From Victivallales bacterium (lineage in GTDB: Bacteria > Verrucomicrobiota > Lentisphaeria > Victivallales > UBA1829): a stretch of 64,000 nucleotides of DNA. Positions within the stretch are counted from its first letter, which is position 1, and each line of letters begins with the position of its first letter. Position numbers and translations under genes: made by a program. Under the pieces are notes generated by a model. It saw only the letters and a list, made by a program, of their open reading frames with translations. It ran no database searches and had not been told where the DNA came from. The DNA lies in the NCBI GenBank assembly GCA_045114235.1, contig JBGUKB010000068.1:15606-79605 (forward strand), written 5' to 3'. Positions 3,890 through 52,802 of this stretch are shown piece by piece.

Positions 3890-4771
3890 TTATTCCCCCT
3901 TCTCCGCGATCGGGATATGCCGGGACTGACGCCGCCGGAGTTCCGCCGCCTCGTAGTCGGCTTTGGCACGCGGGATGAAACATGCGTCGAGGAAGCGTTC
4001 GAGGATGATTTCCCGCGCGAGCTCGGACGGATGGAGCATGTCCTCGGCGTAGAACCGGTAATCGCGCAATTCGTCGTTCAGGATCTCGAACGCGGGGAAA
4101 TACGCGCAGCCGTCGACCTTGGCGCAGACGTCCGCGGCCGCCGCCCGCAACCTCGCCTTCGAGAGCGAGTTCGTGGTCAGGTCGCCCGGATTGTGCCGTA
4201 CGGGCGACAACGTGATGATGATCGGGCACTTGGCGTTGTACGAACGGATGATCTCGCATGCGTTGCGCATCGCGGCGCGGCAGGTATCGTAGGACAGCAC
4301 GGACTGCTCGAACTCGCTGCCTGGCGCTTTGTGGCAGTTCGCGACCACGAGGCGTTCCGGCAGGTGCTTGTAGACGACCGCGGTCGACACGGTCATGAGG
4401 AAGAAGTCGGCTTTTTTTAGCACACGACGGAACCGTTTCGCGGATTCGTTGGCGTTTGCGGCTCCCTCGGCTGCACTCGCGGCGGAGAACGCTCCGTGGT
4501 GCCGCCACGAATGCCATAGCCCGTTCAGCTCGAAGAAATCGCTCTCCGTGTAGCCGCATTCCAGCCGCTGCAAAGCGTCGTTGATGGAGTACGGATTGTA
4601 CAGGATCCCGTTCGGATTGATCATGCCGCGCATGCCGCTGTTGAGCAGCGTCAGGGCGATATCCTGCGCGAAGCACGAGCCGATGGCGGCGAGCGTGCCC
4701 TGCGCCCGGATCTTCGGGAACGGGAAGGTGTAATTGACCGGGGTGTACGGGATGGAGCCTGATGTATTCAT
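3890..4771 (-). CDS. GSCFA domain protein (SGNH-hydrolase-like)
   Basis: Literal GSCFA motif, NPNGILYNP, TLSPVRH, YFPAFEI and DELRDYRFYAEDMLHPS. Confidence 0.9.
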   Translation of the reverse strand: MNTSGSIPYTPVNYTFPFPKIRAQGTLAAIGSCFAQDIALTLLNSGMRGMINPNGILYNPYSINDALQRLECGYTESDFFELNGLWHSWRHHGAFSAASAAEGAANANESAKRFRRVLKKADFFLMTVSTAVVYKHLPERLVVANCHKAPGSEFEQSVLSYDTCRAAMRNACEIIRSYNAKCPIIITLSPVRHNPGDLTTNSLSKARLRAAAADVCAKVDGCAYFPAFEILNDELRDYRFYAEDMLHPSELAREIILERFLDACFIPRAKADYEAAELRRRQSRHIPIAEKGE

Positions 4772-6972
4772 GTGAGCGGGCCTCCGGTGATGAGTTTTTC
4801 GAGCAGGAGCGAGTAGCGCGGTTCCCGGACGGCGTTGCGGACCGCCATGGAAACGGCCTTGCGCGAACCGACCAGGACCATGAGGCGTTTGGCGCGGGTG
4901 ATGCCGGTATAGAGCAGGTTCCGCTGGAGCATCATGTAGTGCTGGGACAGGATGGGCATGACGACCGCGGGGAATTCGCAGCCCTGGGATTTGTGGACGG
5001 TGACGGCGTAGGCGGGAACGATCTGCTCCGCCTCCTCGAACCGGTATTCGACCAACGGGCCGGACTCGTAGCGAACCTGGAATGATTCGTTCTGGAAGTC
5101 GATGCGCCCGAGGAATCCCATGTCGCCGTTGAACACGTTCTTGTCGTAGTTGTTCACGATTTGCATGACCTTGTCGCCGGTCTTGAACAGGCGGCCAAGC
5201 GAACGGAACACGAACTTCTTCTCCGGGTTCAGTTTCTCCTGCAGCAGTTCGTTCATCGCCTGCGTCCCGACCGCGCCGCGGTTCATCGGGCAGAGCAGCT
5301 GCACGTCGCGGACCGGGTCGAGCCCGAACCGGCGAGGGATGCGGTCGGTGATCATGCGTTCGATCACGTCTGCGGCGTCCTCCGGATCGTCCTTCTCGAT
5401 CCAGTAGAAATCAGCCTGCGCATCCTTCGCGCGGCGGGGCAGACGCGGCACGACGCCGTTGTTCACGTCGTGGGCGGCGTGGATAATGCCGCTGCCGTCG
5501 CCCTGCCGGAATATCTGTGTGAGGCGGGAAACCGGGCAGACACCCGATGCGATGAGGTCGTTCAGGACATTGCCGGGGCCAACGGACGGGAGCTGGTCCG
5601 GATCGCCCACGATCACGACGGACGCCCCCGGCTTCACTGCGCGGAAGAACGCCAGCGCGAGCAGGATGTCGAGCATGGACGTCTCGTCCAGCACATACAG
5701 GTCGTAGGGCAGCTGGTTGCCGCGCCCGAACACGAACTTGCGGGCGGCGGGGTCCCATTTGAGCAGGCGGTGGATCGTGAACGAGGTCAGCCCGGTAGCT
5801 TCGGTCATGCGCTTCGCGGCGCGTCCGGTCGGAGCCGCCAGCGCGATCGAAAGATGCGACAGTTTCGCGCGGCGGACGATCTCCGAGACGACCGTGGTCT
5901 TGCCGACGCCGGGTCCGCCCGTAATGATCGTAATGGGGGACTGGGACACACGGTCGACGGCGAGGAGCTGTTCGGAGCTGAATTTCGAGTTCGGCGGGGC
6001 GGGGATTTGCGCGAGCTTCATCCCGGCGTAGCGGTCGCGCGACTGGAGGAACCGGATGAGGAAGGGCAGTTCGTCCTCGCAGCGGAGGAGCCCCGGCTCG
6101 TAGATCATCACGTCGCCTTCGTGCGAAACGCAGGACGCCGCGCGCTTCGTTTCCAGCGCCTTTTCGATGGCGGCGCCCGCGTCGGCCTCGTCCACCTCGA
6201 GCAGTTCCGCCAGGAACTTGACGAAAACCGCCTGCGGCATGCAGACGTGTCCGGCCTGACGCGCCTGAAGGAGTCCGTAGGTCACACCCGCGGTCATGCG
6301 GCGCACGTCGTTGCGTCCGATGCCAAGCTGGCGCGCGATCTTGTCCGCGTAGGTAAACCCGATGCCCTTGATGTCGGCGGCGAGCCGGTAGGGGTTCCCC
6401 TTGATGACCTCGGGGGCCTCGTTGCCGTACTTGTCGTAGATGCGTACGAACCAGGCGGGATTGATGCCGAGGCCCTGAAGATAGATCTGGCTTTCGCGGC
6501 GGTCGGAATTCTCCTTCCACGCCTTGCGGATGGCCTCGATGCGTTTCTTGCCGAGGCCGGGGACTTCCTTCAGGCGGCGCGACTGCTGGTTCAGCACGGT
6601 CAGCGTGTCCGTGCCAAACGTGTCGACGATGGACTTGGCGTACTTCTCGCCGATGCCCTTCACGACCCCGCTGGAAAGATACTTGATGAGGCCGTCGCGC
6701 GTGGCAGGGAGCGAGAACTCGCACGAGCTCACGCGGAACTGACGTCCGTGGTCCTTGTGCATCTCCCACTTGCCGGAGAGCCGGACCGTCTGGCCGGGGG
6801 AAAGCCCCGGCACGGTCCCGACGGCGGTATGTACGGCGCCCTGAGGGTCCCGCAGGCGGAACACGGTGTACGAGGCGTCCTCGCTTTCGTACACGACGTG
6901 CTCCACTTCTCCGTTGAGCTTATGCTCGGCGAGAGAGGCGCTTCCGGATCCGGTGCCGAGTTCGTCCGTCAT
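4768..6972 (-). CDS. recD2: ATP-dependent RecD-like DNA helicase (RecD2)
   Basis: N-terminal OB and HhH regions (GIGEK, GLGKK, NPYRL, GIGFTYAD), Walker A GGPGVGKT, DETSM, GDPDQLPSVGPG, HKSQGCEF and LLYTGITRA. Confidence 0.95.
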   Translation of the reverse strand: MTDELGTGSGSASLAEHKLNGEVEHVVYESEDASYTVFRLRDPQGAVHTAVGTVPGLSPGQTVRLSGKWEMHKDHGRQFRVSSCEFSLPATRDGLIKYLSSGVVKGIGEKYAKSIVDTFGTDTLTVLNQQSRRLKEVPGLGKKRIEAIRKAWKENSDRRESQIYLQGLGINPAWFVRIYDKYGNEAPEVIKGNPYRLAADIKGIGFTYADKIARQLGIGRNDVRRMTAGVTYGLLQARQAGHVCMPQAVFVKFLAELLEVDEADAGAAIEKALETKRAASCVSHEGDVMIYEPGLLRCEDELPFLIRFLQSRDRYAGMKLAQIPAPPNSKFSSEQLLAVDRVSQSPITIITGGPGVGKTTVVSEIVRRAKLSHLSIALAAPTGRAAKRMTEATGLTSFTIHRLLKWDPAARKFVFGRGNQLPYDLYVLDETSMLDILLALAFFRAVKPGASVVIVGDPDQLPSVGPGNVLNDLIASGVCPVSRLTQIFRQGDGSGIIHAAHDVNNGVVPRLPRRAKDAQADFYWIEKDDPEDAADVIERMITDRIPRRFGLDPVRDVQLLCPMNRGAVGTQAMNELLQEKLNPEKKFVFRSLGRLFKTGDKVMQIVNNYDKNVFNGDMGFLGRIDFQNESFQVRYESGPLVEYRFEEAEQIVPAYAVTVHKSQGCEFPAVVMPILSQHYMMLQRNLLYTGITRAKRLMVLVGSRKAVSMAVRNAVREPRYSLLLEKLITGGPLT

Positions 6973-12198: not shown

Positions 12199-12717
12199 AT
12201 GATCCAGCTGGAAACGATCTCTCTTCCGCCGAAAAGCGACTTCGGATTCTTTTCCGCCGCGCCTTTTTTCGGCGCCAACAGCAAGTTCAGGAAAAAGGTT
12301 GTCCGTCTGCTGCGTTCACGGGCTTCCTTCCGAAACGAGATCGAGAGCATCTGGTCGCTGTTTCCATTTCAGACGGATATTCAGAAGATTCTGGAATGCA
12401 TCCGGGTCAACAACGGCTGGCCCAACGCCCTCTTCCTTCCGTCCGATTCCTTCCTCGCCCTCGCGCCGCTCGAAGGACACTACGAATCCTTCACTGCCGA
12501 TTATGACACCGCGAACTGCATCTTTTTCCTGCTTCATCCCGAGGAAAGGATACAGGGGGACCTGTTAAGCCGGTCGCTTGCCGCGTGCGGAGATATTCCC
12601 GTCATTGATACCGAGCGAATTCTACCGGAACACACGATCGCCGATGTCCTGCATCTGCTCGCCGATTCCTCGTTGTTTGATGAGGAATCATCGGGCGTTG
12701 AAATCCGCAAAGATTAG
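12199..12717 (+). CDS. hypothetical protein
   Basis: 172 aa ORF with a GGAGG RBS; lower GC than the flanks; no recognisable family. Confidence 0.55.
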   Translation: MIQLETISLPPKSDFGFFSAAPFFGANSKFRKKVVRLLRSRASFRNEIESIWSLFPFQTDIQKILECIRVNNGWPNALFLPSDSFLALAPLEGHYESFTADYDTANCIFFLLHPEERIQGDLLSRSLAACGDIPVIDTERILPEHTIADVLHLLADSSLFDEESSGVEIRKD

Positions 12718-13346
12718 TTTTTCGTTTCCTGCGTTGAGGGGACGGGCTGCAGATCGATGATAAGCGGGTCGGACCAGGGAATGAAGGGGATGCCGGTTTG
12801 AAGAATCTCGTAACGGTCAATGTTCCAATCCTTTATTTCGAGGTATGATTTCTCCGCGGACTCTTCGGATTCCGCCGTATTTGTTTCATCATCCGCGTGA
12901 AACATCTCGAAACATTCGCCCCGCCAGCCTCCCGCCGGGTACAAGAAGGAAGATTCCGGAGGAAAATTGACAACCGCGACGCAGAGGAACCGGCCTTCCT
13001 TTTTGACGTAGATGTGCCCAGCATACTGCCGAAGCAGTCCCGGGCCGGAAAGGAGATAGCGATAGCCGTATGTTCGCGGCGTTTCCGGTGCCAGTTTCAC
13101 GAGCTTCGTTTTCAAATTGGATGCCTGAACATAACCGTCGGGCAAGGTCATGATCTCGGCGTAGAACTCATCCGGCTGGCAAAGCCCGATGTACCGTACC
13201 AGGTTAATCATTTTTTCCTGCGCGTCTAAACGTCGCGGAAGGTAATAAAACAGTCCGATGCATACATGAACGGCCACTGCCGCCACGATCAGCATGCCGA
13301 GCGCAATCAGCAGGTTCCGCAGAGTATGGTCCTTTTTGGGTTTCAT
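12714..13346 (-). CDS. hypothetical protein with N-terminal membrane anchor
   Basis: 210 aa with a basic N-terminus followed by hydrophobic LLIALGMLIVAAVAVHVCIGLFYY; GGAGGG RBS. Confidence 0.6.
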   Translation of the reverse strand: MKPKKDHTLRNLLIALGMLIVAAVAVHVCIGLFYYLPRRLDAQEKMINLVRYIGLCQPDEFYAEIMTLPDGYVQASNLKTKLVKLAPETPRTYGYRYLLSGPGLLRQYAGHIYVKKEGRFLCVAVVNFPPESSFLYPAGGWRGECFEMFHADDETNTAESEESAEKSYLEIKDWNIDRYEILQTGIPFIPWSDPLIIDLQPVPSTQETKN

Positions 13347-24182: not shown

Positions 24183-25838
24183 TTACTGGTGTTCGAGCTT
24201 GATCGTTTCGGTCTTGGCGTCACAGACGACGGACGGGCCGAAGTACTGGATCGGGCCGGGATAGACGAACGAGGTGTTCACAGCCCATTCGCCGCGGTTG
24301 GCGGCGAAGAACTTGAACGGAGCGTCGTCGAGCTCGACGAGCGCTTTCTTGATGACCGGCTTGTCCGCGCCGTGGCGGTGCTCGACGTTCATCATGGCGG
24401 TCAGCGGCACCGCGCCGGCGGTCCACTCGTCGGCGGATTTCGCGAGGTTGCCGACATAGGACATGTAGGCGGTCGCGCCGGAGCCGATGATGGCGGCGGC
24501 GTTGAAGCCGAGGCTGTAGCAGTAGTCGGCGTCGAAGTTGGACGGGGCGGCGCAGCGGCCTTCGTAGCCGAAGAAGTGGGTCTGGCTGGAGAACTTGCCG
24601 ACGTACTTGCCTTCCTTCTTCATGGCGGCGAGGCGCTGCTTCACGAGCTGCGCGAGGAGCTTTTCAGTCTCGATGAGGGACACCTGCACGTTGCCGTGCG
24701 GATCGCGGTCCATGGAGAGCTGAAGCTGGATGGCGGTCGGGAGCTGGGCGTAGACGGACGCGCTGGCGGCGGAGAGCTTGCCGGAGATGTACGCGATCTT
24801 GTCTTCGGGCTTCGCGATGGCGTTGAATTCGTCGGCGTTCGCGGCGAGGACGTCGTTGAGTTCGCCGATCAGGACCTTCATTTCCGGGATGAATTCGATG
24901 AGGCCTTCCGGCACGAGCACAACGCCGAAGTTCTCCTTGTTTTCCGCGCGCTTCGCGACGATCTTCGCGAGGTCGTCGACGATGCCGGAGAGGGTCTGCT
25001 TCTTCGCGGCGACTTCCTCGGAGATGATCGCAGCGTTCACGTGGGTCTTCAGGACGCATTCGAGCGTGATGTGGGAAGCGGAACGGCCCATGAGCTTGAT
25101 GAAGTGCCAGTATTTCTTGGCGGAGTTGGCGTCGCGGGAGATATTGCCGATGAGCTCGCTGTAGACCTTGCTGGCGGTGTCGAAGCCGAAGGACGTCTCG
25201 ATGAACTTGTTCTTCAGGTCGCCGTCGATGGTCTTCGGGCAGCCGATGACCTGGATCGGGATGTTTTTCGCCTTATAGTACTCGGCGAGCAGGCAGGCGT
25301 TCGTGTTGGAGTCGTCGCCGCCGATGATGACGAGGGCGGAAATGCCGAGCGCCTTGCAGTTCACCGCGCCCTTGTCGAACTGTTCGACCTGTTCGAGCTT
25401 GGTGCGGCCGGAACCGATCATGTCGAACCCGCCGGTGTTGCGGTAGGCGTTCATGAACTCGTCGGTGATCTCGACGTAGTCGTTGTCCACGAACCCGCTC
25501 GGGCCGCCCTTGAAGCCGAACATGCGTGAAGCTTTGTTCAGCGACTTGATGCCGTCGTAGATACCGGCGATGACGTTGTGGCCGCCGGGGGCCTGGCCGC
25601 CGGAGAGGATGACCGCCACATTCACGGGTTTGCCTTCGCCCGCGCCGCCCGCGCTGAACTTCAGATCGGGCATGTTGCTGGTGGACGGGAAGAGGGCGGC
25701 GATCTTTTCAGCGTCGGCGAAGGCGGCGAGAGGGGCGCCTTTTTCGACCTTCACGGTCGCGCCGTTGCGGAGCGCCGGGGGCAGTTTCGGGGCGTATTCG
25801 CTGCGGACCTGCTGGAGCGGGGAAATCATCTTGGACAT
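24183..25838 (-). CDS. pfp: pyrophosphate-dependent phosphofructokinase (long clade)
   Basis: [36 protein letters not shown] (PPi-type Asp), PKTIDGDL and KLMGRSASH. Confidence 0.95.
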
Positions 25839-25897
25839 GGTGTCAGTCTCCTGTTGTGAATGACGGTTACGGTTTGGAATTTTGGTTTAATCTAAAT

Positions 25898-25926
25898 AAT
25901 ATAATGCAACTTGACGCCTTTTTCAA
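25898..25926 (-). promoter_or_regulatory. sigma70-type promoter of pfp-gatC-gatA
   Basis: TTGAAA-17 bp-TATATT on the minus strand. Confidence 0.65.
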
Positions 25927-26176
25927 GCCCGCGCCTCCGTCTTCCGTTGCAGAAAACCGGAAAAAAGGAACACGATCAAGTGTAGAATGCCGTCCCTACC
26001 TGTTCTCCCGCGCATACGCGGGTATGTTCAAAAGCTCCGAATTAACTCCAAGCGACAGCTTGGCGACTAAAGCAATCATTTGATATTCAAGAGATTTTGA
26101 CAGTTTCGAACACATTGCTGCCTCGACAAAACAGGAGACATGACACTACTGAAAAACCGGTTCCCGCGCATACGCG

Positions 26177-26216
26177 CAAGTTTCAGTTAAAACAAGTTCC
26201 TTTTAACTGAAACTTG
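26177..26216. repeat. perfect 16-8-16 palindrome, copy 1 (inverted relative to copies 2 and 3)
   Basis: CAAGTTTCAGTTAAAA caagttcc TTTTAACTGAAACTTG. Confidence 0.95.
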
Positions 26217-26250
26217 GGTTGATTTGGCCGAATTCATTTGCTTTTGTCCC

Positions 26251-26311
26251 GTTTCCAACGATTTTCCCCGTTTCCAACGATTTTCCCCGTTTCCGACGAT
26301 TTTCCCCGTTT
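26251..26311. repeat. 19-bp tandem direct repeat x3 plus a partial copy
   Basis: GTTTCC(A/G)ACGATTTTCCCC units start at 26251, 26270 and 26289; partial GTTT at 26308. Confidence 0.95.
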
Positions 26312-26399
26312 CGCCTGTTTTCCAGCTTGCAATCTTTTCTTTTGCGTGATATAGTTATGATGAAATACCACCTCTCCTTAATTGGGAATAGCCTTGTTC

Positions 26400-28013
26400 A
26401 TGAAGAGAAGCCGCAAAGTCCTGCTGATCGCGCTGGGAATCCCGGTGATATGCGTCCTGCTGATCGCCGGGCTCGTCGCGCTTTCGGTGCTGACCCGTTC
26501 CGCTCCGGTGTACGACTACGACGACCCGGAACCCCTGTGGGAGCTTGCTGAACGCACGGAACGCTACATCATCCAGTCGACGGACAAGGAGTCGCCCGCC
26601 CGGAAGGAGGCGCTGAAGGCGCTGGAGGATATCGCGCTGCTCGAAATCCCCGAGGACGAGAAAGCGCGCCGCATCCGCGAACGTTTCCCGGAGGAATCGT
26701 TCTGGACCGAGGATATAAAGGCTCTGCAGAAGCAGGCGGAATCGGGCGACGCTGAGGCGCAGTTCCGGCTCGGCTGTTTTTATTCGTCGAGAAGAGATAT
26801 CCGTGCCTCCGACGCCGACATGGATCGCGGCGAATGCGTCATGAAGTCCGAGTCCATGGCATACAAGTGGTTCCGCAAGGCCGCTCTGCAGGGGCACGCG
26901 AAGGCGCAGAGCCGGATTCTCAGAAACATGCTCGGGCATCCGGCATTCAAAAATGTCGCGGATGCTTCAGTCCACATCCTGAAGCCCAGACTCTTAGAAC
27001 AGCTCGAACGCGAAGGCGAAGAATGGTGCACCAGTGCGGCCATGCAGGGCGATCCCGATGCGCTGTGGATGGGGCACGGCCCGGATGCGGACGAAGAACG
27101 GAACAAAAGAGCGGCGCTCGCGATCTTCCGCGAAGCTGCCGAACATGGCGACGTCGAGGCGATTCTCTCGACGGCATCCCTGCTGGAGTATTTCGACGAC
27201 ATCGACGGCGCAGCCGAATGGTACCGCAAGGCCGCCGAACTCGGTAACGTGTCCGGCATGGTGTCATACGCGGAATACCGTGAAAAAATGATGGAGCCGG
27301 ACGATGAGGATACCGTCCCCAAGGACTGGGAATGGCGGCAGAAGGCATACGATGCCGCCATGAAGCAGCTGGACGAGGGCAGCGCCAGGGGGATCCGGAA
27401 AGTCAGGGAACTCTCTGTGCCTGTTTTTCTGGAAAGACTGACCGGAGGGGAAAGCGAAGAGGCGTTCGCCGCACGGGTCATGCCGCGGCTGTGGGAACTG
27501 ATCGAACGGCATGGCGACTATGAAGACGCACCCCAGGTCATCCGGCACCTGATGGGAATCGCCGGACTGGACTACGACACGCTCGACCGTCTGTTCGCGG
27601 AGCTTGGCATGTATCTGTATCAGGAGAGATACGCGGATCATCTGCTGGACAGCGGTACGCCGGCGGAACAGGCCGAGGGCGTCAGGCTGCTCCGCAAGCT
27701 CGCCGGATTCGGCTATCTCGAAGCGCGACGCCGACTTGCAAAATGTTATCTGGACGGGACCGGCGTACCGAAGGACAAGGCGGAAGGCGTCAGACTGCTG
27801 CGGACAGCTGCGGGAAAAGGCGATGTTGTCGCAATGCGCCTGCTGAGCAACTGTCTCCGCACCGGCGACCCGCCGAAAAATTGGTTCGAGGCGTTTCGAT
27901 GGGAGCTCCGGGCGGATGCCTATTCGACGCATTGTGATTCCGCCCCCGAATACGTGATCTACCAGGTGAAGAACGCGGCCGAAAACGCCTGGGACGATCT
28001 CCGGCGGCGATGA
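26400..28013 (+). CDS. Sel1-like repeat protein with N-terminal membrane anchor (paralog 1)
   Basis: MKRSRK followed by a TM helix; SLR motifs AESGDAEAQFRLG, AYKWFRKAALQGHAKAQ, AAEWYRKAAELGNVSGM and GTGVPKDKAEGVRLLRTAAGKGD. Confidence 0.85.
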   Translation: MKRSRKVLLIALGIPVICVLLIAGLVALSVLTRSAPVYDYDDPEPLWELAERTERYIIQSTDKESPARKEALKALEDIALLEIPEDEKARRIRERFPEESFWTEDIKALQKQAESGDAEAQFRLGCFYSSRRDIRASDADMDRGECVMKSESMAYKWFRKAALQGHAKAQSRILRNMLGHPAFKNVADASVHILKPRLLEQLEREGEEWCTSAAMQGDPDALWMGHGPDADEERNKRAALAIFREAAEHGDVEAILSTASLLEYFDDIDGAAEWYRKAAELGNVSGMVSYAEYREKMMEPDDEDTVPKDWEWRQKAYDAAMKQLDEGSARGIRKVRELSVPVFLERLTGGESEEAFAARVMPRLWELIERHGDYEDAPQVIRHLMGIAGLDYDTLDRLFAELGMYLYQERYADHLLDSGTPAEQAEGVRLLRKLAGFGYLEARRRLAKCYLDGTGVPKDKAEGVRLLRTAAGKGDVVAMRLLSNCLRTGDPPKNWFEAFRWELRADAYSTHCDSAPEYVIYQVKNAAENAWDDLRRR

Positions 28014-29833
28014 ACCGGCGGGAAGTGCAGACGATGAAGAGAAGAAACCTCAAAATCCTGCTGGTCGCGCTCGGCGCGCCGCTCTTCTGCCTCCTGATGC
28101 TCGCCACCTTCCTCGTGATCGACATGGAGACCGATGTCATGCCGCTCCCGTTCGACTACGACGACCCGGAACCCCTGATGTTCCTCGGGGGACGCACGCA
28201 GCTGTACATCTGGCGGGCGTATCCCGACAAGGATTCGGCCGAGCGGAAGGAGGCGCTGCAGGCGCTGGAGGCCATCGCGCTGCTCGACGTCTCCGACTAC
28301 AAAAAGAAACGCCTCCTCCGTGAACGCTTTCCGGAGGAATCGTTCTGGACCGACGACCTGAAAGACGTGCTGAAGCAGGCGGAATCGGGCGACGCCGAGG
28401 CGCAGTTCCAGCTCGGATGCCTGTATTTCGGCCACGAGCTCGGACTCCCGCCGGACGAACTGAAGTTCCTGGACATGGAGATCGACGAGGCGCGCGGAAG
28501 GTGCATCGAGAAATCCGGGTACATGTCGGTCAAATGGTTCCGCAGGGCCGCGCTGCAGGGGCACGCAAAGGCGCAGAACGCGTTGGCGCAGAGTTACCTG
28601 GCCGGGCTTCATCCTGTGGTCGGCCACCGCGCTTTCCTGACGGAAAAAACCAAAGAAATGATGTACGAAGAAATCAGGAAATGGTGCCGGATGGCGACGG
28701 CGAACGGCGATCCCTTTGTAATGCTGGAGAAATTCGACTCGAACGAGACCAACACCAGCGCGGATTTCAAGGAACGCAAGGAGAAGGCGCTCGACATCCT
28801 CCGCGAAGCGGCACGGCAGGGAAATGTGAAGGCGATGCTCGCCGCGGCGCACAAAATGAGATACGGCGACGAACGGCAGCGCGAGGAGGCCGAGGAGTGG
28901 TACCGTCAGGCCGCCGAGCTCGGGTCCGTGAAGGCCATGATGGATTACGCGAACGTGTGTGAATGGAGGGAATGGAGGCGCATCAAGGCCGAGATCGAGG
29001 CGAAACAGGAGGAGGCCGAAGAGAAAGGCGAGGAGTATGAGGAAGAGGAGATCGTGGTGGTCTCCGAGGAGGCGGACCGGTGGCGGAGGAAGGCATTCGA
29101 CGTCGCCATGAAACACCTGGACGAGGGCAGCGCGAAGGACCTGTATCTTTGGACGGACAACATGTCCTATTACATCGAACCGGAATCCTCACCGCTGAAA
29201 ACCTGTCTGGACGAATACCTCGGCGAGGAGAATACGGCTGCGTTCCTGAAGCGGACCGTGCAGCGGCTCTACGATCTGCTCGAACAGGACAACAGAGAAA
29301 TCTACTACATAGGCCGGATCATCTCGGATGTCCATAAGGAATTCGAGGACCTCGAAATCTTCCGGTCGGGCAGGTCGCCGCTGATCCGGTACGCGGAGGC
29401 CGGAGTCCCCTTCTACCAGTCCGTCCTGGCGCTCCGGACGATGAACGGGAAAGACGAGCCGGGCGTGCAGGAGTACAAGCCGGAAGCCATCAGGCGCGTT
29501 CGCATCGGCGCGGGATTCTGCTCGATGGCGGAAGAGCGCTACCTGGGGGAGTACTATCTGAACGGCAACGGCGTACCGCAGGACACCGCGGAGGGCATCA
29601 GGTGGCTGAAAAAGGCCGCGCTGCAGGGGGACGACGCGGCAATGCGGCTGCTGAGGGATCATTACCGCGGGTCGTGGAACCCGTATCAAGCGTTGAAGTG
29701 GACCATACGGCTCGAACTCCATTCATACGGCTACGCATCGCCCGTCGAGTACTGCACCGATGCGCTGAAGGAATTGTGGTCGGACCATCTGGAAAAGGCG
29801 TGGTTTCGGTTCGTGGACTGGCTCCCCATTTAG
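28010..29833 (+). CDS. Sel1-like repeat protein with N-terminal membrane anchor (paralog 2; start may be MKRRNLK at 28035)
   Basis: TM helix, the shared YDDPEPL and ERFPEESFWT blocks, and SLR motifs KWFRRAALQGHAKAQ, EWYRQAAELGSVKAM and GNGVPQDTAEGIRWLKKAALQGD. Confidence 0.85.
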   Translation: MNRREVQTMKRRNLKILLVALGAPLFCLLMLATFLVIDMETDVMPLPFDYDDPEPLMFLGGRTQLYIWRAYPDKDSAERKEALQALEAIALLDVSDYKKKRLLRERFPEESFWTDDLKDVLKQAESGDAEAQFQLGCLYFGHELGLPPDELKFLDMEIDEARGRCIEKSGYMSVKWFRRAALQGHAKAQNALAQSYLAGLHPVVGHRAFLTEKTKEMMYEEIRKWCRMATANGDPFVMLEKFDSNETNTSADFKERKEKALDILREAARQGNVKAMLAAAHKMRYGDERQREEAEEWYRQAAELGSVKAMMDYANVCEWREWRRIKAEIEAKQEEAEEKGEEYEEEEIVVVSEEADRWRRKAFDVAMKHLDEGSAKDLYLWTDNMSYYIEPESSPLKTCLDEYLGEENTAAFLKRTVQRLYDLLEQDNREIYYIGRIISDVHKEFEDLEIFRSGRSPLIRYAEAGVPFYQSVLALRTMNGKDEPGVQEYKPEAIRRVRIGAGFCSMAEERYLGEYYLNGNGVPQDTAEGIRWLKKAALQGDDAAMRLLRDHYRGSWNPYQALKWTIRLELHSYGYASPVEYCTDALKELWSDHLEKAWFRFVDWLPI

Positions 29834-29895
29834 AAAGCCTCAACCGTCGCACGTGTGTTTTTTTGGTGTTTGTTTGTTGAATTGGAAAGGAAATT

Positions 29896-29935
29896 CTAGT
29901 TTCAGTTAAAAGCAGTTTGTTTTAACTGAAACTAG
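29896..29935. repeat. perfect 16-8-16 palindrome, copy 2
   Basis: CTAGTTTCAGTTAAAA gcagtttg TTTTAACTGAAACTAG, followed by cgcgtgt. Confidence 0.95.
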
Positions 29936-29962
29936 CGCGTGTATTAGCGCGTATGCGCGGGA

Positions 29963-30012
29963 AGGGGAGGACAAGTCCTCCACTGCGGTAGTGTCCGGCT
30001 TCGCTCGGACAC
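29963..30012. repeat. REP-like double-hairpin element, copy 1
   Basis: AGGGGAGGACAAGTCCTCCACTGC (24 bp identical to 36232-36255), then GTGTCCG-gcttcgct-CGGACAC. Confidence 0.8.
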
Positions 30013-30065
30013 AAAATAGGGGCATTACCGAAATTCTACTTCAAATAAAGACGAGAAATAATAGT

Positions 30066-30105
30066 CTAGTTTCAGTTAAAAGGAGTTTGTTTTAACTGAA
30101 ACTAG
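30066..30105. repeat. perfect 16-8-16 palindrome, copy 3
   Basis: CTAGTTTCAGTTAAAA ggagtttg TTTTAACTGAAACTAG, followed by cgcgtgt; direct repeat of copy 2, 170 bp apart. Confidence 0.95.
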
Positions 30106-30165
30106 CGCGTGTGCGCAAGAAATCGTTTTTTACCGCGGTTTTCTGGCGAATCGCGCCGTGTTGTG

Positions 30166-30194
30166 TTGAAAAAAGCGGAAAAAGATGCTATAGT
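30166..30194 (+). promoter_or_regulatory. sigma70-type promoter of the NhaC-family gene
   Basis: TTGAAA-17 bp-TATAGT with an extended TG. Confidence 0.7.
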
Positions 30195-30223
30195 AATCCT
30201 GAAACAACAAAGGATTATCCGAT

Positions 30224-31558
30224 ATGAGCAATTTCCCGCAGATGGAATGCCGCGCGCCGCGGTTCCGCGCCCTGATCCCATTTTTCGTCTTCATCGTGTT
30301 CTACCTCGGGCTTTCGATCTGGGCGCGCGATTTCTACAAAGTGCCGATGCCGACCGCGTTTCTGGTGGCGTCGGCGGCCGCGCTGGTGCTGGACCATAAA
30401 CGCCCGCTCGCCGAAAAAGTGGAAATCTACGCCCGCGGCATGGGCGAACCGAACATCATGATCATGTGCCTGATCTTCATCCTGGCGGGGGCGTTCGCGT
30501 CCACGGCAAAGGGCATGGGCGCGGTCGACGGCGCGGTGGTGATCGCCCGCGCGGTCGTGCCGGATTCGCTGATGCTGCTCGGGATGTTCCTGGTGGCGAG
30601 CTTCATCTCGCTGGCCGTGGGCACGAGCTGCGGAACCATCGCGGCACTCACGCCGATCGCGGCGGGGCTCGCGGACGGGCTCTCCATCTCCCCGGCGATG
30701 CTGCTCGGCGCGATCGTGGGCGGCGCCATGTTCGGCGACAACCTCTCCATGATCTCGGACACGACCATCGCCGCCACGCGCACGCAGAACATCGCCATGC
30801 GCGACAAATTCCGCCAGAACATCCTGCTGGTCCTGCCGGCGTTCGCCGCGACCTCGGCGATCTATCTGTTCTTCGGCGGCACGGCGCGGACGACCGAGGC
30901 GGCGCAGGCCGTGACCTGGGCGAACGCGTTCGCGGTGCTGCCGTACCTGCTGATCCTCGTTTTCGCGCTGCTGGGCTGGAACGTGATGCTGCTGCTCTTC
31001 GCCGGGACCGTGCTCGCCGGGATCACCGGGATCGTGAACGGCGCGTTCGATCTCTGGGGCATGCTCGACCTGATCGGGAAAGGCACGCTCGGCATGTCGG
31101 AGACGCTCATCGTGGCGATCCTCGCGGGCGGCCTGCTCCAGACCATCCGGCGCAACGGCGGCATCGGCTACCTGATGGAGAAGATCAAAAAGCCGGTACA
31201 TACCGCGCGCGGCTGCGAATTCGGCGTGCTGGTGCTCGTCGCGGTCATCAACCTCTTCACTGCGAACAACACCGTGGCGATCGTGATCGCGGGCCCCATC
31301 GCGCGCGAGCTTTCCGAACAGTACCACTGCTCCGCCAAGCGCATCGCGAGCATCCTGGACACCGGGTCTTGCGTGGTACAGGGCATGATCCCCTACGGCG
31401 CGCAGATCCTGATCGCGGCGGGCGTGGCGCAGACCTCGAATCTGGACGTATCGTCCCTGAGCCTCGTCGGGTCACTATTCTACCCGATGCTCCTCGGCGT
31501 CTGCCTGCTCGGCGCCATCGCCATCCACCGGGAAAAGACGCCCGCGCCCGCCGCCTGA
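30224..31558 (+). CDS. Na+/H+ antiporter NhaC family protein (MetT-like amino-acid transporter)
   Basis: About 12 TM segments; IFILAGAF, SLAVGTSCGTI, GAMFGDNLSMISDTTIAATRTQ, RIASILD and PYGAQIL. Confidence 0.9.
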   Translation: MSNFPQMECRAPRFRALIPFFVFIVFYLGLSIWARDFYKVPMPTAFLVASAAALVLDHKRPLAEKVEIYARGMGEPNIMIMCLIFILAGAFASTAKGMGAVDGAVVIARAVVPDSLMLLGMFLVASFISLAVGTSCGTIAALTPIAAGLADGLSISPAMLLGAIVGGAMFGDNLSMISDTTIAATRTQNIAMRDKFRQNILLVLPAFAATSAIYLFFGGTARTTEAAQAVTWANAFAVLPYLLILVFALLGWNVMLLLFAGTVLAGITGIVNGAFDLWGMLDLIGKGTLGMSETLIVAILAGGLLQTIRRNGGIGYLMEKIKKPVHTARGCEFGVLVLVAVINLFTANNTVAIVIAGPIARELSEQYHCSAKRIASILDTGSCVVQGMIPYGAQILIAAGVAQTSNLDVSSLSLVGSLFYPMLLGVCLLGAIAIHREKTPAPAA

Positions 31559-31571
31559 ACACGGACACGAA

Positions 31572-32765
31572 ATGATGAGCTACGACTACGGGATCCCGGG
31601 CGAACTGCTGCGTTTTCTGGGGGCCTGTATCTACGGCGACGCCCCTGCGTTTTACGGTGCCCTGAACGAGTCCGAACGCACCGAACTGGAGGCGCAAGGA
31701 AAGCGTTTCGGGCTGGCGACGTGGTTTTACCGGTATCTGCATGATGTCCTGCCGGAGGAGAAGCGCGCGGAATACCAGAAAGCATATCAGTTGCGACAGC
31801 TGAAGGCGATCAAAGGCGTACTGGAACTGAAACGCCTCTACGGGGTGCTGGCGTCGCACGGACTGCGGTTCGTGCCGATCAAGGGCGCGGACCTGGCATA
31901 CCGTCTGTACCCGGACAATGCTCTGCGCGCCTTCAACGACTGGGATATCTGGTTCCACCCGGACGACTGCGAACGGGCGCTTGAAGTGCTGAAGAATGAC
32001 GGCTGGACGATCCCGGAGTCATACTCGGATGATCACGAAGCAGTAAAGAAAACGGAGGCGCACCATTTTTCGCTGCATGTCCGCGGACAATACGCCCTCG
32101 AACCGCACTTCACGCTTGCGAACTTCGAAGGAGTTAATCCGCGGGAAATGTGGGACGAGACAGTTGAATGCCCCGGCGGCGACGGACAACGGATATTATC
32201 GCCGGAAATGAACCTGCTGATGCTCGCACGGCATGCTGCCTCGCAGTCGTACTACCACGCCCGGCTGCCGAAACTGCTGACCGATGCGGCGATGGTGATG
32301 CAAAAGGAAACGGTGGATTTCGCGAAGCTTCGTTCGATGGCGGCATGCTGGCATCTGCCGTATCCGGGCGATCTGCTGGCGGCATTCCCGGAGTTCTTCC
32401 CTTCCGACAGGATCGCGGAATTCGGGGCGGATCCCCGGAAATCAGCTGAGTTCCGCCGGATATTCGAGTTACGCGGAAGACTTGGCGAACAGAAAAACGT
32501 TGCGCTTCTTCTGGGGCGTTTCAGGGCGCGCGGACAAGTGACCGGAGGATTGCTGAACCATATCAAAACGCTCAATCCAGGCAAGATCCGCCGCATTTAC
32601 CGGCTGCCGAAGCATGGAGCATGGGGACGTGTGGCATGGTCGTATCTGTGTTATTTTTCGACACGCACATGGCGCGTGCTGACGGTCTGCCTTCAAAGAG
32701 ATCCCGATCTGCGGGATTACACAGCCCTGGCCGAAACCATAGAGTCGGACCAGACTGGGAAATAG
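31572..32765 (+). CDS. nucleotidyltransferase family protein (NTP_transf_5-like)
   Basis: FVPIKGADLAYRLYP...R.FNDWDIW, EPHFTL, LSPEMNLLMLARH and KLLTD. Confidence 0.75.
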   Translation: MMSYDYGIPGELLRFLGACIYGDAPAFYGALNESERTELEAQGKRFGLATWFYRYLHDVLPEEKRAEYQKAYQLRQLKAIKGVLELKRLYGVLASHGLRFVPIKGADLAYRLYPDNALRAFNDWDIWFHPDDCERALEVLKNDGWTIPESYSDDHEAVKKTEAHHFSLHVRGQYALEPHFTLANFEGVNPREMWDETVECPGGDGQRILSPEMNLLMLARHAASQSYYHARLPKLLTDAAMVMQKETVDFAKLRSMAACWHLPYPGDLLAAFPEFFPSDRIAEFGADPRKSAEFRRIFELRGRLGEQKNVALLLGRFRARGQVTGGLLNHIKTLNPGKIRRIYRLPKHGAWGRVAWSYLCYFSTRTWRVLTVCLQRDPDLRDYTALAETIESDQTGK

Positions 32766-51635: not shown

Positions 51636-52802
51636 TTAACGGGGAAACAACGATCCGGGCGGCGGCGGATTTGGCTGTTTCAATTTGACGAGCGCAGATT
51701 CCAGCCAGACTCGGAACGATACGCCGCGCATGCGGCATTCGTCCGCACAGATCGCGAGCATGGCAAACGGATCGGCGACGGGCGTTTCCGGGTTCGCGCG
51801 GGACAGTTCCAGCCTTGGATCGTACAGGAATTCGGAAAGGCTCCTTTCGTGCTCGACTGCATGACGGAGCGCCTCGGCGAGAGGCGAACGCGGATCCTGA
51901 GCGGGCAGCATTTCCCGGCAACGTTCCAAGATCTTCGCCACGATCCGTGCCGATTCGATGCGGACGGCGCGGCGTTCACGGTACAGGTCCTCCGGCGCAC
52001 CGCCAAGGCGTTCCGCGCGGAGACGGGCATGATCCTCCAGTTCACACAGAGCATGAATCCTCTGCAGGAACTCGTCGGCGAGCCAGTCGCCGCCGGCTTT
52101 TGCATCCTCGAACATGCGACGGAGATTCGACCAATCGGGAAGCGTCCGCACGACCATGGCAGAGCAAACGGGAGCGATCGTCTCCGCCGCGGCCAGGAGC
52201 AGCCCGCGCAGGGCGGATTCGGAGATCACGAGCCCGGATTCCAGCTTCAGGCGTTCGGAGATCGTACGGAATGCCATGCCCGCCAGGTGATAATCCGTCA
52301 CGTAAGCGACAAACGAGGCGTCGAACTGGTGAACACCGCCGGACGGATCGGGAAACAACGCCGGACCGGGCGCGGCGGCGGACGATCCCGAACCGTCGTT
52401 GGCCGCATACATCGCGCGGCGGAATGTCCGCCGGACAAGAGCGGAACGCACCGCGACCGCTTCCGACGTTTCGAAAGCAATGACTGACATCCCGGCGGAT
52501 TTGGCGGACGGGAGTTCCAGATTCACCTCGTCGGAAGGAAGATCCGGCGGAACGGAGGCCGGTTCGGAGACGTGGTATGACGCGGCGGATTCATGCAGCG
52601 CACCGGACGTCTTGTCCGGGACTCCATGCGGACGTAAATCCGCAGCAGCTTCTTCTTCCACGGACGGAAGCACATACAATCCGGGCATGACACGTCCGTA
52701 GGCCTGACGCGAAAGAAGATCGATCGTCTTCTTCAGCGCGACATTCTCGTGCTGACTGGCTTCAAGCTCGCGTTCGAGCTCCGATTTCCGGTCGGACGGC
52801 AT
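51636..52802 (-). CDS. IS66 TnpC transposase-derived protein lacking the catalytic core
   Basis: N-terminal coiled coil LLSRQAYGR; LP.DEVNLE, ETSE, ISESAL, LRRMFEDA, IHAL.ELE, PRSPLAEAL.HA and FLYDPRLELS; no DET/DGY core; no TIRs or tnpA/tnpB. Confidence 0.65.
   Translation of the reverse strand: MPSDRKSELERELEASQHENVALKKTIDLLSRQAYGRVMPGLYVLPSVEEEAAADLRPHGVPDKTSGALHESAASYHVSEPASVPPDLPSDEVNLELPSAKSAGMSVIAFETSEAVAVRSALVRRTFRRAMYAANDGSGSSAAAPGPALFPDPSGGVHQFDASFVAYVTDYHLAGMAFRTISERLKLESGLVISESALRGLLLAAAETIAPVCSAMVVRTLPDWSNLRRMFEDAKAGGDWLADEFLQRIHALCELEDHARLRAERLGGAPEDLYRERRAVRIESARIVAKILERCREMLPAQDPRSPLAEALRHAVEHERSLSEFLYDPRLELSRANPETPVADPFAMLAICADECRMRGVSFRVWLESALVKLKQPNPPPPGSLFPR

Follow-up and report, generated by a model that had tools for sequence, protein, structure and literature searches.

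Three long perfect palindromes surround a pair of Sel1-repeat genes in DNA from a Victivallales bacterium, the 64,000-nt stretch of contig JBGUKB010000068.1 analysed here (hereafter the window; coordinates are window positions unless a locus, with an L number, is named). Here we report that these palindromes probably belong to a lineage-specific family of short repeats interspersed in intergenic DNA, similar in a broad sense to repetitive extragenic palindromic (REP) sequences. In total 212 copies were collected, nearly all of them intergenic and all from one clade. The unit is a polar hairpin in which pairing of the arms is maintained by compensatory changes, and crossovers that rearranged the Sel1 locus have taken place within its palindromes. 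A preliminary description of this DNA had proposed instead that the palindromes are loxP/FRT-like sites at which a tyrosine recombinase acts in trans, the Sel1 pair being a cassette or an invertible segment; a family resembling miniature inverted-repeat transposable elements (MITEs), which it listed as an alternative, is close to what the evidence supports.

A polar hairpin unit and its distribution

A pattern scan for GTTTCAGTTAAAA-N8-TTTTAACTGAAAC finds exactly three matches in the window, none with a mismatch, with core starts at 26180, 29899 and 30069; the pattern was matched in 0 of 100 dinucleotide-preserving shuffles of the window. All three cores extend to perfect 16-8-16 palindromes, just as they had been described, and no other perfect hairpin in the 64 kb has a stem that reaches 11 bp. 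Each is accompanied on one side by a GC-rich box. We define the F orientation as that in which the GC box comes first and the hairpin second. The elements in the window are:

26006-26020, plus strand: solo GC box without a hairpin, absent from the preliminary description
26161-26177, plus strand: GC box of copy 1, TTCCCGCGCATACGCGC, abutting the large stem
26177-26216, plus strand: copy 1, 16-8-16 palindrome with loop CAAGTTCC; F orientation with GC box, hairpin and T-rich tail
29896-29935, minus strand: copy 2, 16-8-16 palindrome with loop CAAACTGC; F orientation read on the minus strand
29936-29963, minus strand: GC box of copy 2, duplicated, GCGCGTGTATTAGCGCGTATGCGCGGGAA on the plus strand
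30066-30105, minus strand: copy 3, 16-8-16 palindrome with loop CAAACTCC; F orientation read on the minus strand
30106-30117, minus strand: GC box of copy 3, a shortened variant, GCGCGTGTGCGC on the plus strand
29896-30122, no strand assigned: composite doublet, a 227-bp block of copy 2, a 130-nt hairpin-rich spacer and copy 3

The outer arms differ as previously noted, reading CAAG...CTTG in copy 1 and CTAG...CTAG in copies 2 and 3. The 17-nt block TTCCCGCGCATACGCGC (26161-26177) does have an exact inverted counterpart at 29947-29963, on the right of copy 2, and a longer inverted match (26152-26214 with 30068-30130) is 86% complementary. The claim that copy 1 is inverted relative to the other two also holds. 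The reverse complement of its spacer, GGAACTTG, shares 5/8 positions with the spacer of copy 2 (GCAGTTTG) and 6/8 with the spacer of copy 3 (GGAGTTTG). The orientation is independently confirmed by the GC box, because across the family the box lies on the same side of the loop polarity in all 80 copies in which it was recognised on one side.

Alignment of 86 oriented copies showed that conservation is confined to about -20 to +45 around the core, giving the consensus t.TCCCGCGCATACGCGC-AA-GTTTCAGTTAAAA-CAAgTTCC-TTTTAACTGAAAC-TTG-Ag..TTTT. The unit is thus about 60 nt long (60-65 nt conserved) and polar. It consists, in order, of an alternating box rich in GC (consensus TYCCCGCGCATACGCGC), a 16-bp stem that is perfect and AT-rich, with only 4 G:C pairs, around an 8-nt loop (consensus CAARYTCC in F orientation), and a T-rich tail that is variable. 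Copies that are not orthologous align over some 60-90 nt only, from about -20/-40 to +3/+30 around the core. Discrete subfamilies are apparent, one with loop CAAGTTCC and CAAG/CTTG arms, another with loop CAAAC(T/C)(C/T)C and CTAG/CTAG arms and a third with loop GTACTYCG; with further variants, more than 25 loops occur, some of them 7 nt long. Folded as single strands, every copy forms the 16-bp stem (z-scores -4.5 to -6.2), in most cases with a 4-bp GCGC mini-hairpin directly abutting it. Copy 1 can form such a mini-hairpin from its box, an alternating pyrimidine-purine tract. Scans of the window and 18 loci against Rfam matched tRNAs alone and placed no family on the element.

Several other identities for the unit, or parts of it, were considered and rejected. 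Purine-pyrimidine alternation, which would suit Z-DNA, characterises most variants of the GC box and is broken in a whole subfamily (CGCGCTATCCGCGC, GCGCAATACGCGC). An open reading frame (ORF) runs to a TAA inside the left arm (...FPRIRASFS*), with an ATG 16 codons upstream in copy 1; the start is not kept in the genome RUG10770, and variants with 1-nt indels in the GC box break the frame. A 34-nt repeat with GTTTC...GAAAC ends, co-oriented copies and unique spacers recalls clustered regularly interspaced short palindromic repeats (CRISPR), a reading at odds with spacers of about 155 nt and with dozens of sites that each have one to four repeats. In each arm the outer 7 nt, GTTTCAG/CTGAAAC (26180-26186 and 26207-26213, and in other copies), resemble the ParB-binding parS half-sites, GTTTCAC/GTGAAAC; with the half-sites 20 nt apart, the resemblance is probably coincidental. 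Solo GC boxes are rare: one lies upstream of pfp in the window and in RUG10770, and another, CGCGCGTATACGCGTACGCG, lies upstream of gyrB in three species (L008, L019 and L046), immediately before a TTGAAA hexamer resembling a -35 element.

In a collection holding one genome per species, the exact 26-nt arm pattern occurs in at least 87 copies at no fewer than 50 loci. These belong to 11 metagenome-assembled genomes, all from the rumen and labelled Lentisphaeria, Victivallales or uncultured bacterium (RUG and RGIG series). Allowing up to two mismatches per arm added few, for 99 copies in the genome loci and window together; in rumen metagenome contigs the exact pattern picked out at least 62 further loci, with 113 copies when counted at the same tolerance. 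The numbers of copies are likewise lower bounds. A search with a hidden Markov model for weaker copies returned almost none, and more distant Lentisphaeria, retrieved through pfp, carry no element around that gene. The family is therefore confined to one genus-level group of rumen Lentisphaeria (Victivallales). Viral contigs contain no match to the arm pattern, on which ground a phage or plasmid origin was rejected. We found no description of this hairpin element in the searchable literature.

Genes on the element-bearing loci were called with a simple codon-usage caller trained on these same loci. By these calls, intergenic DNA holds 98 of the 99 copies in the genome loci and window and every one of the 113 metagenome copies. 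Once orthologues are merged, the 55 element-bearing regions of the first set represent about 24 sites, at which the positions of copies are conserved between species. Read by eye, the adjoining genes include yajC, gyrB, dnaE, proS, lptD, hisA, hisH, ftsQ, pfp and NhaC, together with genes for a uracil-DNA glycosylase, an [FeFe]-hydrogenase-like protein and a DUF2339 membrane protein. The neighbours at these sites share no functional theme and include no mobile-element gene. A regulon was rejected, the downstream genes being functionally unrelated housekeeping genes, and the association with accessory genes or recombinases that the preliminary description anticipated gives way to copies scattered beside housekeeping genes, with no recombinase adjoining them.

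Pairing of the arms, arrays and placement beside genes

The three outer positions of the stem lie outside the search pattern, so their pairing is unbiased by the search. Among the 99 copies, the first outer position is A:T in 98 and the third C:G in 93; the second, which we call the closing pair, is A:T in 63, T:A in 33 and unpaired in three, and another tally of it gave 62 A:T, 33 T:A and 3 mismatches. No copy pairs at a fourth outer position, which gives the stem a sharp limit of 16 bp. Counted over the 209 usable copies, the closing pair is A:T 153 times, T:A 50 times and unpaired six times. A formal count over 98 sequences found 99% of stem cells paired, compared with 17-47% in shifted-register controls, and changes on both sides at four stem pairs. 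At the first core pair, a double change from G:C to A:T is present in the orthologous copies of both RUG555 and RGIG6757, and one variant copy (L014:3373-3435) combines two double changes with one wobble. Together these data show that compensatory changes keep the arms paired. The small GC hairpin is less well paired (85%), a shortfall that stems partly from indel variants misaligned by the fixed columns. In eight orthologous intergenic sets, pairwise identity is 96.6% in the arms, 82% in the loops and 67% in the remaining intergenic DNA, a contrast that is inflated because the loci were retrieved by exact arm matches; that decayed copies are few agrees with it.

Copies occur singly or in runs of two to four, and neighbours less than 450 bp apart share the same orientation without exception (88 of 88 pairs). 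Start-to-start spacing has a median of 189 bp (interquartile range 175-213). In arrays of three or more copies, about a third of successive spacers are 63-99% identical, and the rest are at the level of unrelated arrays. On the basis of the shared orientation, the spacing and the similar successive spacers, we conclude that arrays lengthen when a unit of about 190 bp is duplicated in tandem; after duplication the spacer drifts while the element stays unchanged. Array size differs even at a single site: upstream of pfp there is one copy in the window and RUG10770, two in RGIG6757 and Tb.RUG.336 and three in RUG555.

Placement relative to genes was examined through gene orientation and through promoters. 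In gaps between co-directional genes, orientation is random, with 29 regions along transcription and 32 against it. Copies are found in gaps between divergent genes more often than in those between convergent genes, in 18 regions to 4, a difference that is no more than suggestive once orthologues are collapsed; the corresponding depletion from convergent gaps, 12 to 1 in the first set, shrank to 6 to 3 after orthologues were collapsed and the metagenome set added, and is not relied on. From the hairpin centre to the next -35 element is 80-285 nt, and among orthologues of the NhaC site alone 80 to 146 nt, which led us to reject a fixed distance to promoters. No enrichment of promoter-like sites was found upstream of F-oriented units. 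The random orientation, the unenriched promoters and the variable distances therefore argue against a terminator, a leader, a small-RNA gene and a position-dependent operator. The position and orientation data fit a repeat that exists at the level of DNA.

The Sel1 locus and its rearrangements

In the window the copies occupy the two intergenic regions on either side of the Sel1 pair. A consensus scan of 25700-30400 found three sigma-70-like promoters, and Pfam identified the genes:

24183-25838, minus strand: pfp, pyrophosphate-dependent phosphofructokinase, the left neighbour
25898-25926, minus strand: sigma-70-like promoter of pfp, TTGAAA-17-TATATT, conserved in relatives
26327-26355, plus strand: sigma-70-like promoter of Sel1A, TTGCAA-17-TATAGT, conserved in relatives; begins 111 nt downstream of the copy 1 stem end (26216)
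26382-28013, plus strand: Sel1-repeat protein A (Sel1A), 543 aa, with an N-terminal membrane anchor
28010-29833, plus strand: Sel1-repeat protein B (Sel1B), 607 aa
30166-30194, plus strand: sigma-70-like promoter of the NhaC-type gene, TTGAAA-17-TATAGT; begins 61 nt downstream of the copy 3 stem end (30105)
30224-31558, plus strand: NhaC-type Na+/H+ antiporter, the right neighbour

Copy 1 is upstream of both divergent promoters, those of pfp and Sel1A, and copies 2 and 3 follow the Sel1B stop codon and precede the NhaC promoter. Sel1B is a tandem paralogue of Sel1A, with DNA identity of 70-84% in patches, and the G+C content of both genes equals that of their flanks. A 19-bp tandem repeat, CCCGTTTCCAACGATTTTC (3.4 copies, 97% match), fills 26248-26312, separating copy 1 from the Sel1A promoter; species differ in the number of its units, relatives having just one or two.

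Between pfp and NhaC, the content of the locus differs among relatives:

RUG10770 (L032 and L030): Sel1A and Sel1B; 91-92% identity to the window
RUG12414 (L015): Sel1A and Sel1B; 88% identity to the window
RGIG6757 (L036): a Sel1B-like gene directly behind the Sel1 promoter; 89% identity to the window
RUG555 (L005 and L051): one Sel1 gene, its protein 41% identical to A and B; flanks 93-94.5% identical
Tb.RUG.336 (L041): a glycosyltransferase gene, a Sel1B-like fragment, then Sel1A; 89% identity to the window

The preliminary description suggested looking in relatives for an empty pfp-NhaC site. Sel1 content does vary; orientation is constant in every locus with both flanks. Order and orientation are the same in RUG10770, RUG12414, RUG555, Tb.RUG.336 and the metagenome locus L190, with no inversion seen. 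The RGIG6757 contig ends inside the Sel1 gene and that of RUG11954 covers the right-hand side only, and both are consistent with unchanged orientation. Nor did an empty pfp-NhaC site turn up in any relative; outside the clade, the DNA upstream of pfp is without NhaC, Sel1 and the element.

The relatives do record rearrangements in which the repeats took part. In Tb.RUG.336 the hairpin at L041:4730 (4710-4775) is a hybrid of two elements. Its left flank and CTAG arm match the element downstream of Sel1B, as found in RUG11954; from the loop through the CTTG arm to the right flank it is identical to the element that precedes Sel1A in Tb.RUG.336 itself. The hybrid therefore records an exchange within the palindrome by which an R copy and an F copy were joined, leaving the junction of a tandem duplication. 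Direct identity between palindromic arms predicts such a product; directional site-specific exchange between inverted sites does not. In RUG11954 (L028 4085-6017) a Sel1 paralogue, together with a promoter of the Sel1 type (CTTGCAAT-N-TATAGT), precedes the [FeFe]-hydrogenase-like gene and is joined exactly at the boundary between GC box and hairpin; the right junction falls inside the former spacer, not at a hairpin. The composite doublet is also found elsewhere at 78-82% identity, in loci L037 (4647-4861) and L001 (7261-7573); one of its other contexts is the DNA before the hydrogenase gene of RUG555, and another the DNA before an oxidoreductase gene of RGIG10120. Its spacer (29964-30065) holds several short conserved hairpins (GGAGGACAAGTCCTCC, CACTGCGGTAGTG, GTGTCCGGCTTCGCTCGGACAC) that move with copies 2 and 3, and might represent a small RNA or the terminator of Sel1B. 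At the position of the solo box (26006-26020), the GC box is followed by a hairpin and TTGAGTTTTTGA in RUG555, RGIG6757 and Tb.RUG.336, from which the window differs by an indel of about 52 nt. As these three relatives have the full unit there, hairpins evidently come and go as modules of roughly that length; in the window the hairpin was either lost or never gained. These cases show that the palindromes served as crossover points at the Sel1 locus, in rearrangements that look homology- or structure-driven rather than site-specific.

Enzymes that might act on the repeats were sought around the copies. Pfam found no recombinase or transposase within 10 kb of the palindromes on either side in the window, where the ten genes on either side are housekeeping genes. 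Among 28 window proteins scanned with Pfam the only mobile-element gene is an ORF with an IS66-family DDE transposase domain (51636-52802, minus strand), 21 kb away and of very low codon-usage score. It is probably a fragment of an insertion sequence (IS) and was rejected as a source of the repeats, being unrelated and without hairpin copies nearby. In all, 1.13 Mb of element-bearing DNA was searched. With IS608 TnpA, the Escherichia coli REP-associated tyrosine transposase (RAYT) and XerD as tblastn queries, nothing was found in the genome-derived loci and window; in the metagenome loci the same queries gave a single match with E below 0.1, a tyrosine integrase:

L190 4894-6276 (metagenome contig Ga0265298_10023535): tyrosine integrase with foreign codon usage, by a tRNA 3' fragment just downstream of the NhaC orthologue

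At the counterpart position the window has an NTP_transf_5 gene. The integrase has no homologue in the 1.13 Mb and probably belongs to an unrelated integrated element. Two genes stand out from the rest of the window by very low codon-usage scores, the NTP_transf_5 nucleotidyltransferase gene (31572-32765) and a 210-aa ORF without a Pfam match (12714-13346); they may be recently acquired or miscalled.

Competing explanations and known systems

We consider a REP-like family of interspersed repeats, in the broad sense, the probable explanation of the palindromes. Such an element would act or persist by forming a hairpin or cruciform in DNA, possibly with the help of a structure- or sequence-specific binding protein. 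Conservation of the arms could reflect selection for the hairpin or cruciform, selection for the binding protein's site, or gene conversion between copies, singly or in combination. The bracket around the Sel1 pair would then exist because two adjacent promoter-bearing intergenic regions happen to carry copies facing opposite ways. Several observations weigh against this explanation. The contrast in conservation between arms and flanks is exaggerated by the mode of retrieval, and the strong conservation of the arm sequence itself, not of pairing alone, fits the site of a sequence-specific protein at least equally well. There is neither a target-site duplication nor a clean pair of filled and empty sites that would reveal transposition, and no cognate dispersal enzyme was found in the element-bearing loci, a RAYT or IS200-like gene being absent from the 1.13 Mb at least as judged by the queries used. 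The GTAG head of classical REPs is missing, arrays are direct rather than alternating, and the window has a density of just three copies in 64 kb.

In a different explanation the palindrome, with or without its GC box, is an operator or architectural site near housekeeping promoters, on which an abundant protein that binds as a dimer or tetramer (a global regulator, or a protein of the nucleoid) would act, its conservation reflecting selection on protein recognition. We regard this as unlikely, if the most serious of the competitors. Arms that are almost invariant across species while flanks drift, positions kept at orthologous sites, copies upstream of sigma-70-like promoters (80-285 nt from centre to -35), a random orientation to the downstream gene (29 and 32 regions), which is expected of a DNA-level site, and the excess of divergent over convergent gaps (18 to 4) all agree with it. 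Compensatory double changes in the arms, in contrast, are unexpected if half-sites are recognised independently, the distance to the promoter varies (80 to 146 nt) even at the NhaC site, and the neighbouring genes share no function. Moreover, only a minority of promoters have a copy (two intergenic regions for some 45 genes in the window), the discrete loop subfamilies and tandem duplication resemble a propagating repeat, and the divergent-convergent contrast is weak once orthologous sites are collapsed. An element working in RNA, whether an intrinsic terminator, a 3'-end stabiliser of the upstream gene or a conserved 3' module of small RNAs, has a lower probability still. The F-oriented unit does look like a terminator, with a long stem and a T-rich tail, and is flagged as one by the consensus scan; in co-directional gaps the first copy usually lies 65-130 nt past the stop codon, and the fold is strong. 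Against this, orientation to the upstream gene is random while the T tail is present in one orientation only, and many copies occupy divergent gaps, in which no transcript from an upstream gene would end; both facts led us to reject a terminator. Copy 1 and its orthologues stand upstream of promoter-like sites of both neighbours. Where an intrinsic terminator has a GC-rich stem, a U tract and sense orientation, the element has 4 G:C pairs in 16 and a variable tail. A small-RNA gene was rejected for want of promoter-like enrichment upstream of F units and of any Rfam match.

Two further explanations invoke recombination. With a probability as low as that of the RNA-level element, the copies are cis sites of an unrecognised structure-specific recombination or copying system, whose hairpin-binding enzyme is encoded elsewhere and which moves modules between intergenic sites; the module could be the doublet, or an element with promoter and gene. 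The hybrid hairpin of L041, the boundary junction of RUG11954 and the doublet in three contexts are compatible with such a system, and also with ordinary homology- or palindrome-induced rearrangement. Were it true, the locus of the Sel1 paralogues would be a chromosomal cassette hot spot, loosely like an integron or pdif modules. The loxP/FRT-like model of the preliminary description we hold to be very improbable. In its favour are the 13(16)-8-13(16) architecture with an asymmetric centre, the inversion of copy 1 relative to copies 2 and 3, the variable Sel1 content (A and B, B only, a third paralogue of 41% identity, or GT1 with a fragment and A) and the hybrid hairpin as an instance of exchange within a site. 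Yet more than 200 copies lie beside essential housekeeping genes. Strand exchange of the Cre/FLP type requires identical spacers in partner sites; here copy 1 differs from copy 2 at 3/8 positions and from copy 3 at 2/8, and in the family at large loops vary freely, in length as well. The hybrid joins an R and an F copy into a tandem duplication, which is the wrong product for inverted directional sites and fits arm homology. Related genomes covering both flanks show no inversion, no recombinase lies near the copies save the one tRNA-linked integrase beyond NhaC on a single metagenome contig, and the Sel1 genes match their flanks in G+C. Most of the findings that the preliminary description had itself named as refuting a cassette were thus made. 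Its geometry stands (inverted arms, an asymmetric 8-nt centre and opposite orientations); the cassette or invertible segment with a tyrosine recombinase does not.

Read as a repeat family, the palindromes carry practical consequences. The Sel1 pair should not be annotated as a recombinase cassette, and the palindromes should be masked as repeats, which CRISPR and terminator finders may miscall. The family adds a well-defined hairpin repeat to the Planctomycetes-Verrucomicrobia-Chlamydiae (PVC) superphylum, for which our literature searches turned up no such family. Its near-invariant paired arms, one-sided alternating GC box, strictly co-oriented arrays with a spacing of about 190 bp and conserved positions before housekeeping promoters make it useful for studies of how repeats persist. 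The chimeric hairpin is a concrete case of a short palindrome acting as the crossover point at which a surface-protein-like (Sel1) locus is reshuffled and duplicated.

The element can be compared with several known systems. With loxP, FRT and dif sites, including the pdif modules of Acinetobacter plasmids, it shares two inverted arms of 13 bp (11-13 bp in core sites) around an asymmetric centre of 8 bp (6-8 bp in core sites), and opposed sites flanking a gene module of variable content. Unlike them it is chromosomal and present in hundreds of copies by housekeeping genes, its centres are non-identical and vary in length, its arms co-vary, and its loci showed no associated recombinase and the assembled relatives no inversion or excision products. 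Given the non-identical spacers, the copy number, the compensatory arms and the lack of recombinase and inversion, the analogy is one of geometry only. Palindrome-associated transposable elements (PATEs), derived from IS200/IS605, are likewise asymmetric hairpin units in the same orientation, 150-250 nt apart, without terminal inverted repeats or target duplication. The present element differs in that the DNA separating its hairpins is for the most part unrelated at different sites, its loci yielded no TnpA or TnpB, and orientation is not uniform along a replichore, copy 1 opposing copies 2 and 3 within 4 kb.

MITE-like repeats (Correia/NEMIS of Neisseria, ERIC, RUP and BOX) resemble the element in being non-coding and interspersed, with inverted termini, near promoters, divided into subfamilies, able to reshape intergenic regions and tens to hundreds of base pairs long. 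In contrast to them its inverted part is just 40 bp, and no IS with the same terminal repeats was found. The arms could be terminal inverted repeats, but the flanks carry no direct duplication, the outer bases being themselves palindromic, and the sole comparison of a filled with an unfilled site (26006-26020 and its relatives) gave no clean boundaries.

The REPs and bacterial interspersed mosaic elements (BIMEs) of Enterobacteria and Pseudomonads, mobilised by RAYT/TnpA-REP, differ from the element in several respects. Their GTAG/CTAC foot is replaced by C(A/T)AG within the stem, with the GC box on one side of the stem and an A/G and T-rich tail on the other, and no RAYT was found in element-bearing loci. 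REP stems are imperfect and GC-rich whereas that of the element is perfect and AT-rich, and the polar one-sided GC box is peculiar to the latter. Element clusters are strictly direct, with spacers of about 150 nt, whereas BIMEs alternate with short linkers; and the element is frequent upstream of promoters and between divergent genes, whereas REPs are mainly at 3' ends. We describe a new, clade-restricted hairpin repeat family, for which membership of the RAYT-REP class proper is not established. What it has in common with REPs and BIMEs is that it consists of short palindromes (35-40 nt), intergenic, in many copies and lineage-specific, which are clustered, hairpin-forming and recombination-prone and whose positions are often kept between related species.

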